Source: Amoebidium appalachense
Lineage: Eukaryota; Protista; Ichthyosporea
DNA: 64,000 nucleotides
Direction: 5' to 3'
NCBI GenBank assembly: GCA_963693365.1
Contig: CAVNZM010000001.1
Coordinates: 10,256,161 to 10,320,160 of the forward strand
The notes under the pieces: model-generated
Databases searched by the model: none
The model's input: only the letters and a program-made list of their open reading frames with translations
Told to the model about the DNA's origin: nothing
Position numbers and translations under genes: made by a program
Shown: positions 47,601 to 50,600 of the stretch, piece by piece
Numbering within the stretch: position 1 is the first letter of the stretch
Layout of the letters: every line of letters begins with the position of its first letter

Positions 47601-50600
47601 AAATTCCTCCCTCCCCCCCCCCCCCCCCCCCCCCCCCCCCCCCCCCCAAAAAAAAAAAAAAAAAAAAACCCCTGCATAAGCAACCCTGCTCGTCTCTGAT
47701 CAAGACGGATGACCTACCCATGTTCAAGTGAAACAGTATCTGAGTTGGGTTTCGTTAACGAGGTGAATAGGTCGAAACTCGGGTACTGTGGATGACGTGG
47801 GCCCCCCCTGAGGATGGGCTCTGCTTATTATGCATACTCTTTATGTATGGCTTGCATTCTGCATCGTGTTATCCGTTTGTTCTTGTGTACTTCGTACTTT
47901 TTGACGCATTCAAACCCCCCCCCCCCCCCCCCCCCCCCCCCCCCCCCCCCCCCACACACACACACACACACACCCAATGTTCAAGTGAAGCAATGTCTGA
48001 GTTGTAGTTTGTATTCTGGGCAAATGTGTCGAAACTTGGGTTCTGTGCATTATCTGAATGTCCCCTGAGGATGGTCCAGGCATATAAAGCATGCATAATG
48101 CATACTGCTTAGTGTGTGTGCTTGTGCTTTGTAACACCCTCTGAACCCCTCCCCACCCCCTCCCCCGCCGAACCACACGTGCGTGTGTGTTTGCATGTGC
48201 GCACACGTGCCTACAAGCACACCCCTGCACGAACACTCGCATGCTCATGCTGACAAGCATACACGTGCACACATGTATGCACACACAGAGAGAGAGAGAG
48301 ATAGAGAGAGAGTGACAGAGAATAAACACACAGCATAACACAAAGACATGCAGCATGCACAGGAGACGCCTCACAATCTTGTTCATACAACTCCTAACTT
48401 ACCCATTCACTTGTTCACGCTCCCACTTGTGCAAACCAATCAATGGGTGCGCGCACAGACACGCACACACGCATTCACTCTCTCGCACACTTGGACCTTT
48501 GTATGCACACACACACACACACACACACACACACACACACACACACACACACACACACACGCACACACACACGCGCACACACACACACACACACACACAC
48601 ACACACACTCCCACACACACTCCCACACACGCCGACGTGCACGTACACACACATACACACACACACACACACTCCCACACACGCCGACGTGCACGTACAC
48701 ACACACACACGCGCGCGCGCGCACACACACACACACAGTGGCTGAAACCGGACGGTAACATGTTCCCTACTACGGGTGTCATCTACATGTCACCCTTCCA
48801 AGACGATTATCTGTACATGGAAACCTACACGTAAGCAGCCCCCCCCCCCCCCCCCCCCCCCCCCCGCCCGCCCGCCCGTCCCCCGTTGAAATAGGTAATG
48901 GATGGAGATTGAATTTTTTTTGTGTGTATGGCGAGACTCCCCTGTCCATTGATTATAGTCACATGACTGGGGGGACAGTGTCTAAAATCCCGGAAGCGTG
49001 GCTGCGCACATACCACACACCCCACAAAAAGTATGAGGGATCTAGAAAAACAGCCAATCATATGCCTGCATATTTCTGTCCTGCCTGATATGATAAGATA
49101 GTATGTGGACCGGCCAATGAAAGACTTACTATTCTTATGTGATTCTATGCCAGTGATATCGCCTGAAGAATACTTGCACGTGAGATAGACACACACAGAT
49201 GCAAAGATACATATACTCTTTTGAGTCAATCACATATCTGTATGTTGTTGTACTGCCTCATATTATCAAAATGTATGAGGACCGTCAAATGAAACACCAC
49301 CACCATTTGTAAATTCGACTCAAAAGTGAAATTTTCACGTCAAACACACATATCCCCCCCCCCCCCCCCCCGGGAAAAAAAAAAAAAAAAAAAAAAAATC
49401 TAAACCACCGCCCCAATAGCAAGAGTGTAAACAAACACGCTTGCAAAATAAATAAATAAATGATATAAAAAAAGAATCATTCTTACGGCAAGTAATTTGC
49501 CTTGCCGCTGCTAAGTTAAATTTAAACTATCTCCCATACAGCAAGAGTACGTTCTGGAGCCAGCCCTGCTTCTACGGTGTTGACCTGCGGTCGCTCAACA
49601 ACTCTGCCATTGACGAATATTTCTCCACGCCCATTGTCGATGCCTTCGACCCAAGGATAGTCCTTTCACAGTACGTATTCCCTCCCCCCATAATAAAAAT
49701 AATAAATAAATAAAAAAGAAAAGAAAAATGAGGAAGAAGGAAGGAAAGGAAAAAAAGAAAAAAACGAAAGGTAAAAAAAGGAGGGGGTGGGGGGGATGGG
49801 GGGGGGGGGGGGGGGGGAGGGGGGGGGGGGGGGGAAGAAGAAAAACGGGGAGATTGATTGGCGTAGGCTGTATAATGCACACACGGGCAATTCCACACAG
49901 CAGGGAAGTCACAGGTTTTTATACAAAAAGGAAAGCGAGCATACTTTGTAGTGAGCAGCATCTGAGTTGGGTTTTTGCATGCGAGGTGAATGTGTGGAAA
50001 CTCGGGTTTTGTGGATGAGTTGGGTCCCCTTAGAGGATGGCCTCCTTGTGTGTGTCCTGCAAAATCTGACCTTCTTATTAAGTTAAAAAAAAAGCTAACA
50101 AAGCTGATGTCCTGTCCGTCGCGAAGGTGTATTTCGTGCTTTTATACGCATAAAAACCACACTCGCACTCACACTCTCACTTCAACTCCCACTCTCACTC
50201 ATACTCACACTCGTATGTGTACACACACACACACACACACACACACACACACACACACACACACACACACACACACACACACACACACACACACACACAC
50301 ACACACACACACACAGGCCTGTTCGTCACACGATCGACTTTCTTCACACACCCCTTGCGGATATGGAGACCATCACCATGCCCTTCAGCTACACCCTCCA
50401 CCGCCCAGCCACAGTGCACGGTCTTGCCTTTTGGTTTGATGTTCTCTTTGCTGGCTCGGAAGCAAATGTGTGACTCCCCCCCCCCCCCCCCCCCCCCATT
50501 CACCGCACACACAAACACACACACCCACACCCACACTTGGGCTCCCCATGAGGATGGGCTCTGCTTATTTATGTTCTATACTGTGCGTGTTGCTGATGTT

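Follow-up and report, generated by a model that had tools for sequence, protein, structure and literature searches.

A candidate hammerhead ribozyme in S-G-C order, with stem II possibly completed from upstream, within an abundant intronic repeat

The window, by which we mean the whole 64,000-nucleotide stretch analysed, is intron-rich eukaryotic DNA in which C/G runs and CA repeats are abundant. Exons of three genes were recognised: a DNA ligase gene and a CARM1/PRMT4-like gene on the plus strand, and a DEAH helicase gene on the minus strand. Between about 12100 and 37400 (+), exons carrying an HTGD motif (12139), which we take to be metallo-beta-lactamase-like, lie upstream of the DNA ligase exons on the same strand; together they perhaps form one nuclease–ligase fusion gene. 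For one helicase exon, a second version of its start precedes the genuine exon directly (62590–62526 and 62435–62359, minus strand; 90% over 77 bp), and the end of that exon with its donor site recurs near 61595 (-). The window holds 201 C runs of at least eight nucleotides. Those of at least ten show a coding-strand excess in the ligase region (86 versus 29) and the helicase region (19 versus 3), and no strand bias at 40–55 kb (29 versus 27). A derivation of the poly-C runs from decayed tails of the element described below was unsupported, most of the 201 runs having, by eye, no preceding element end.

The focal element belongs to a repeat family termed A and lies in an intron of the CARM1/PRMT4-like gene, on the gene's strand, upstream of the exon at 48739; the preceding exon, near 47385–47462, was read by eye from the sequence. 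Searches with nhmmer identified 13 pieces of family A and the related family B in the window, one of them weak (E 0.33), together with three clear and two weak pieces of a third family, C; the reversed window, used as a control, contained no family piece (Table 1). Nearly all A/B pieces have a common 3' end followed by C-rich DNA and start at many different places, and all are oriented as the nearest identified exons, including the B copy, which sits in an intron of the DEAH-helicase gene on that gene's strand. Family B begins at 60446, 155 nt upstream of the RNA fold considered below, and family A continues, in loose contig ends, 5' of 47671 into upstream sequence different from that of B; a motif from this family A upstream sequence was not found in a scan of the window. 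The fold is thus internal to the unit, and not at the head of the repeat where the first-pass annotation had placed it. The unit is non-coding, and the B copy, apparently a whole unit, measures 433 nt. Its 5' end (60446–60400, minus strand) may form a helix of its own, variants at 60409–60410 matching variant first letters in loose ends; an HDV-like fold there was rejected (loop too short; z -1.14). Family C has block C of the fold and the next ten bases in common with the other families, has its own P1 strand and tail, and is represented by no full copy in the window.

Table 1. Repeat copies in the window and elements of the predicted fold in the focal copy
Feature	Position	Strand	Remarks
Focal family A copy, 5'-truncated	47671..47914	+	poly-C 47915-47953 behind
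Family B copy, apparently a complete unit of 433 nt	60014..60446	-	fold 60291-60126; predicted cut 60214/60213
Young family A copy, starting at stem III start	36068..36249	+	without upstream stem II strand
Young family A copy, truncated like the 36068 copy	51587..51766	+
Older diverged copy, tandem behind focal copy	47972..48127	+	core letters intact, stem I decayed
Older diverged copy	49947..50153	+	C3 and C11.1 changed
Three truncated copies (about 50535, 50753, 50880)	50515..51012	+	start at or just before block C
Family C piece	51091..51228	+	block C = CUGAUGA, then different 3' tail
Family C relatives	51797-51927; 59622-59507	+; -	weaker pieces near 19056 and 51996
Closing helix P1, 5' strand	47676..47682	+	pairs 47822-47828; 7/7 pairs in both copies, no covariation
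CCC strand	47684..47686	+	pairs 47816-47818; invariant in both copies
Hairpin b	47689..47709	+
Stem II, candidate upstream strand (pseudoknot strand of the first-pass annotation)	47711..47716	+	pairs 47768-47773; G47711 = G10.1
Helix c, 5' strand	47717..47724	+	pairs 47794-47801; 8/8 pairs, one double change
Hinge between helix c and stem III	47725..47736 (with 47786-47793)	+	GA steps opposite each other in copies A and B and in the one at 49947
Block S	47737..47749	+	stem III strand 47737-47745 (to 47733 in A); U16.1 = 47745; U17 = 47746; stem I strand 47747-47749
S-to-G linker, variable, with small hairpin e	47750..47767	+
Block G	47768..47789	+	stem II 47768-47773 (C11.1 = 47773); GAAA 47774-47777 (G12-A15.1); stem III 47777-47789
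Block C core	47805..47814	+	stem I strand 47805-47807; CUGAGGA 47808-47814 (C3-A9)
U after A9, GGG, internal loop, P1 3' strand	47815..47828	+	47817-47820 = rival downstream stem II strand too
3' tail to fixed 3' end	47829..47914	+	poly-C starts at its end

Public contigs from four runs were aligned to a 271-bp stretch of the element, with 5,734–8,633 records aligning per DNA run. Summed depth, which is not a copy number, reached 4e5 to 2e6 over most of the stretch, against 5–50 for single long contigs, and shows that the repeat family is very abundant. Depth declines toward the element's 5' end, and many joints run from the element interior to poly-C, the pattern left by 5' truncation in reverse transcription. 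In three of the four runs (10, 20 and 2 contigs), loose ends place the unit 3' end plus six or seven C's directly before the B unit 5' end. These head-to-tail joints could instead stem from insertion into the tail of an earlier copy, and no whole head-to-tail dimer lies within the window. No copy starts at the cleavage site predicted below, either in the window or among the 15 joints listed of 178. In a single contig from run X1, belonging to a diverged copy, the stem II strands (47714 to 47811) are joined directly, as if reverse transcription had jumped the helix.

Among 64 ORFs scanned, mostly picked from the 339 of at least 90 aa, none belonged to a reverse transcriptase (RT) or other mobile-element family, and no ORF combining a Penelope-like RT with GIY-YIG was seen within the window. 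No tRNA and no A box were found, and the unit 5' end gave no Rfam match; lone B-box-like matches occur mid-unit, and positions 100 and 142 of the unit hold T runs. A Pol III SINE with a tRNA, 5S or 7SL head was ruled out, as no Pol III-derived head with A and B boxes is present.

The first-pass annotation had described an unassigned pseudoknotted fold supported by covariation. We checked its pairs between the focal copy (A) and the B copy at 60291–60126, the only two full copies. The fold proved real, and it need no longer be called unassigned, all hammerhead core letters being present. The closing stem (a) keeps its seven pairs in both copies, with an eighth in B only. Hairpin b has six pairs in both; the proposed seventh is broken by an A at 47709 that is private to the focal copy, G being present in ~99% of family contig depth and completing the hairpin. 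In one run, 6% of depth carries a G47707A change that disrupts the same hairpin. An alternative pairing of 8 bp, also conserved, 47688–47695 with 47812–47819, would replace hairpin b and cover the end of CUGAGGA, a possible off state. Helix c retains all eight pairs, including the reported U.G to A-U change. For helix d, the inner 10 of 14 pairs are common to both copies (one double change and three single changes with pairing kept), and three of the four outer pairs fail in B. The apical hairpin e is weak, with two pairs common to A and B. The pseudoknot has six common pairs and one compensatory change rather than the two claimed: 47715:47769 changes from U-A to C-G, and the second difference is one-sided and private to the B copy (60182, where G accounts for ~99% of depth).

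The consensus of the two copies folds at -43.0 kcal/mol, against -24.4 +/- 3.8 in column shuffles, which do not keep dinucleotides (0/300); the opposite strand is weaker, at -35.5. A stem as good as the pseudoknot arose among unpaired columns in 61 of 5000 shuffles. Single-copy stability is not unusual for A (z -1.15) and unusual for B (z -3.34). The annotation was right to place on the host sense strand an RNA structure that is under selection and contains a long-range pseudoknot. Its guess of a ribozyme also holds, as a candidate, while the suggested stand-alone intron-encoded RNA gives way to an internal domain of a mobile repeat. Of its further suggestion, RT recognition, a role for the closing domain may survive.

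No Rfam family reached its gathering score over the window. At E up to 10, three scans returned five, one and four weak matches, of which only one proved meaningful: the stem II–GAAA–stem III half of Hammerhead_1 (14.2 bits, E 3.6, gathering 34). The missing half lies downstream of the matched one. The annotation's statement that the fold does not match a hammerhead was accordingly mistaken, the whole core being present in a non-circular S-G-C order that the Rfam models do not score; no tRNA was found in the repeat, and HDV-like, twister, pistol, hatchet and hairpin ribozymes gave no model match at E up to 10. A SAM-I riboswitch, RNase P/MRP, the telomerase RNA P6.1 plus pseudoknot and a tRNA T-arm were considered and dropped. 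Pattern scans elsewhere returned 0 and 2 matches in viral contigs, 8 in metagenome contigs and 3 in prokaryote genomes. The eight metagenome matches have no similarity beyond the pattern; of the five viral and prokaryote matches, four lack stem I and one (L012) has stems of only 3–5 bp and was taken as chance. No relatives were found in the viral, metagenome and prokaryote collections scanned.

Turning to the core itself, GAAA (47774–47777) follows C47773, which pairs with G47711, and A47777 pairs with U47745 at the inner end of helix d, which corresponds to stem III; U47746 comes next, giving the triplet GUU (47744–47746). Both G10.1-C11.1 and A15.1-U16.1 are canonical. The first-pass annotation had overlooked both the complete set of core letters and stem I (47747–49 with 47805–07), which has 3 bp in A and 4 bp in B, the third pair being G-C in A versus A-U in B. 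CUGAGGA follows directly after the stem I strand in each copy (60148–60142 in B). The GUU triplet is present in all six copies that span the cleavage site, and GUU is listed among the active cleavage triplets, GUC and GUA being the fastest (PMC3138052, in the accessible text). Among the six copies spanning the core, four keep every core letter, one lacks C3 and C11.1, and one, the B copy, has A in place of G12. This A is the private letter at 60182. According to the accessible part of PMC2553840, G12 acts as general base, and cleavage is slower with G12A. Family C has CUGAUGA, which within a 17-nt match differs only at position 7, a free position, and a diverged contig retains GAAAC and the stem I/CUGA junction with a different stem III strand. 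Conservation of the closing domain (48/50) matches that of the core, and core invariance in the contig variant tables is not significant alone, most positions being variant-free.

An any-order hammerhead descriptor found exactly one core per copy, in homologous columns (A at position 12 being allowed for copy B). Dinucleotide shuffles of copy A passed a loose form of the descriptor in 47 of 20,000 cases and in 0/20,000 when the observed lengths of stems II and III were demanded; column shuffles passed in both copies in 0/20,000, also with the previously described helices fixed. Across the window, 4 of 26 CUGAnGA sites passed, three of them family copies. As the descriptor was written after the sequence had been seen, these counts overstate certainty, though too little to render chance a likely source. 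Stems I to III and helix c show one double change each, and 91% of cells are paired when stem II is formed with the upstream strand, scored on two rows. The pair-shuffle control was modest (6–30 of 500), and with two full copies only, each double change may be one event. The stem II change segregates within the family in all four runs, at 3–16% (47715) and 3–6% (47769) of depth, and loose contig ends carry both changed strands.

That the helices are real and the match coincidental, the RNA being a SINE-like structured domain with no relation to hammerheads, or else a new ribozyme such as the annotation had proposed, would agree with the lack of an Rfam family at threshold and with the after-the-fact descriptor; we judge it very improbable, given that no shuffle in 20,000 yields the core in both copies and that stem I covaries where the hammerhead model requires it. 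The repeat very probably encodes a real structured RNA with a hammerhead core in S-G-C order. The fold is likely to be self-cleaving, with a predicted cut between 47746 and 47747, although its short stem I, its GUU triplet and the core-closing pairings given below count against cleavage. Within the window, only the 47671 copy holds a complete candidate ribozyme with the core split as proposed below; active intronic copies may have been selected against, or the others may merely have decayed.

Eckert et al. (2023; PMC10085705) divide the hammerhead core into blocks S, G and C, and their text reports in vitro validation of a non-circular order, SGC, with an additional 'I' helix formed between the strand 5' of stem I and the one 3' of stem II. 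Cleavage rates of 0.007–0.19 per min are given there for SGC ribozymes, which come from metatranscriptome and metagenome contigs, had no biology attached to them and, one weak candidate aside, were found in no known organism's genome. Blocks are assumed in that text to be uninterrupted beyond 1–2 nt, and it describes no larger insertion between CUGAnGA and the stems. In the focal copy the order is S (47737–49), G (47768–85) and C (47805–14); hammerhead types I, II and III (CGS, GSC and SCG, built on a nested three-way junction) were ruled out by this order and by the merely partial 14.2-bit match.

Two strands compete for stem II. The upstream strand (47711–16) offers five to six Watson-Crick pairs, one of them covarying, whereas the downstream register (47817–20), reached after a 2-nt insertion, offers four pairs in A and six in B, G.U-rich and without covariation. 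The estimated energies are -6.7 (upstream) versus -1.5 kcal/mol (downstream) in A and -7.1 versus -5.1 in B. The downstream register is paired in 67% of cells, scored on six rows versus two for the upstream strand and so not like for like. If the upstream strand forms stem II, helix c takes exactly the position at which the SGC 'I' helix links stem I to stem II. In both old copies the block G strand has changed with no matching change downstream of CUGAGGA; one of the two has a complementary stretch upstream in register, but this is a CA repeat and ambiguous. We favour the upstream strand. Because the 5' strand of stem II appears upstream, the chain would then open between A9 and G10.1.

Precedents for material at this point are small in the accessible texts: one extra nucleotide between A9 and G10.1 occurs naturally and is tolerated (PMC1636495), a similar unpaired base is found in Penelope-like element (PLE) hammerheads (PMC4209133), and other core insertions have been described, none of them at A9/G10.1 in the text available (PMC3088659). 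Our incomplete coverage of the literature found no report of a split core or of an SGC ribozyme in eukaryotic repeats.

Alternative-fold regulation is common in elements of this sort. Possibly, the element is a plain type-SGC hammerhead in which stem II pairs 47770–47773 with 47817–47820 after a two-nucleotide insertion behind A9, the upstream strand acting as an off-switch that spares monomers and host pre-mRNA. Block C would then be unbroken, within the 1–2 nt insertion of known alignments as described in the text of PMC10085705; the downstream pairs can form in both copies, and GGGCUCUG is common to families A, B and C. Yet that helix is weak and lacks a double change, the A47769 that disrupts its fifth pair has its compensating change in the upstream helix, helix c would lose its 'I' helix geometry, and two stronger helices would have to be displaced. 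We regard this arrangement as unlikely. On balance, and by a modest degree, we hold the element to be an active ribozyme with an SGC core, its stem II completed by the upstream strand, its block C split, and its predicted cut after U47746.

A further explanation retains the hammerhead-derived fold and dispenses with a useful cleavage rate, the RNA being kept as a binding or positioning module for a partner RT. The fold lies 85–240 nt from the fixed 3' end and is common to families with different flanks, its closing domain is nearly invariant, and it is tolerated in sense orientation in housekeeping-gene introns. The GUU triplet is consistent with this explanation, as are several pairings that would close the core: U17-A14, U47710-G12, and 47803–05 or 47688–95 with the CUGAGGA region. 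Against it, all catalytic residues are kept across families whose linkers have diverged (A and B agree in 9 of 26 columns over 47747–47768), and the G12A of the B copy is absent from ~99% of family depth. Such a module seems to us improbable.

We propose the following model for the active ribozyme with an upstream stem II strand. By a folding back of stem III, the hinge and helix c, the last of these would connect the outer end of stem I to that of stem II, like the SGC 'I' helix, with the facing GA steps of the hinge possibly forming a kink. The point of entry for both RNA ends would lie between A9 and G10.1; there, hairpin b and the CCC/GGG helix would meet stem II and the core in a junction and clamp the break. 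The resulting topology would be type SGC permuted inside block C. Sense insertion into introns would supply transcription, host transcripts reading through tandem units; one cut per unit would release a family B monomer of ~440 nt, perhaps ligated into a circle. The RT of an autonomous element elsewhere could then copy the RNA, starting at the oligo-C, into C/G runs of the genome, the oligo-C pairing with a target G run to prime copying. Such copying would leave the 3' ends fixed and the 5' ends truncated and would yield a multimer now and then, as proposed for non-LTR retrozymes.

The element is most likely retrozyme-like, and head-to-tail units joined by about seven C's fit such a life cycle. 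As described in the accessible texts, non-LTR retrozymes are units of 150–450 bp with an internal hammerhead, cut from multimers, circularised and copied by the RT of another element (PMC7229834; bioRxiv 2026.07.22.740005). A Penelope-like RT is a candidate partner; the one PLE RT studied in vitro starts internally and without target homology, and prefers AT-rich targets (PMC11167929, in part). No poly-C-targeted retroposons were found among the literature titles examined. The broadest form of our proposal is an active seventh hammerhead arrangement beyond the six permutations held to be possible, a type SGC whose catalytic block has an opening at A9/G10.1 that a helical junction closes again, and that drives circular-RNA retroelements at many thousands of intronic copies via poly-C/G priming. 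We advance it tentatively, at a little under an even chance.

The element was compared with known systems as far as their accessible texts describe them. With type-SGC ribozymes (HRIMA-1 and variants; PMC10085705) it has in common the block order, the core residues, the doubly pseudoknotted stems, the helix joining stems I and II (given an upstream stem II strand) and the linker from stem III to that helix. It differs in length (~160 nt versus ~80), in its S-to-G linker (~20 nt versus ~3), in stem I (3–4 bp versus 5), in the apparently interrupted block C with a stem II strand at the 5' end, in the extra closing domain (P1 and hairpin b) and in its location in eukaryotic genomic DNA; this comparison was made from text, and the published alignments may reach further. 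Like the non-LTR retrozymes of Cervera and de la Pena (2020; PMC7229834), the unit is short and non-coding (433 nt versus 150–450 bp), has a putative internal hammerhead, apparent head-to-tail copies and no ORF, and would rely on another element's RT, here by proposal. Those retrozymes have hammerheads of type I, occur as tandem arrays in animals and are reported to be depleted from Xenopus introns (bioRxiv 2026.07.22.740005), whereas the present element has the S-G-C order and is mostly dispersed, 5'-truncated, intronic, sense-oriented and poly-C-linked. Penelope-like pLTRs (PMC4209133, PMC11167929) similarly combine a hammerhead in a repeat with partial tandems, truncated pieces and a possible internal RT start, but have type I hammerheads and an RT ORF, the latter absent here. 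The CChMVd (+) hammerhead (PMC1636495) likewise has an insertion, an extra A, between A9 and G10.1, although a single nucleotide there contrasts with a whole domain and both RNA ends here.

Hammerheads and the SGC order are themselves already known; the element described here would be a new wiring of a known ribozyme. An upstream origin of stem II would overturn the premise that core blocks are indivisible, would mean that descriptor and Rfam searches have so far overlooked a set of ribozymes, and would make A9/G10.1 usable as an entry point for ribozyme switches. The predicted self-cleavage also raises the question of how cells tolerate such sense-strand RNAs in the introns of housekeeping genes. 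If true, our proposal would tie the SGC topology to a function, the release of retroelement RNA, in a eukaryote that carries thousands of natural variants.
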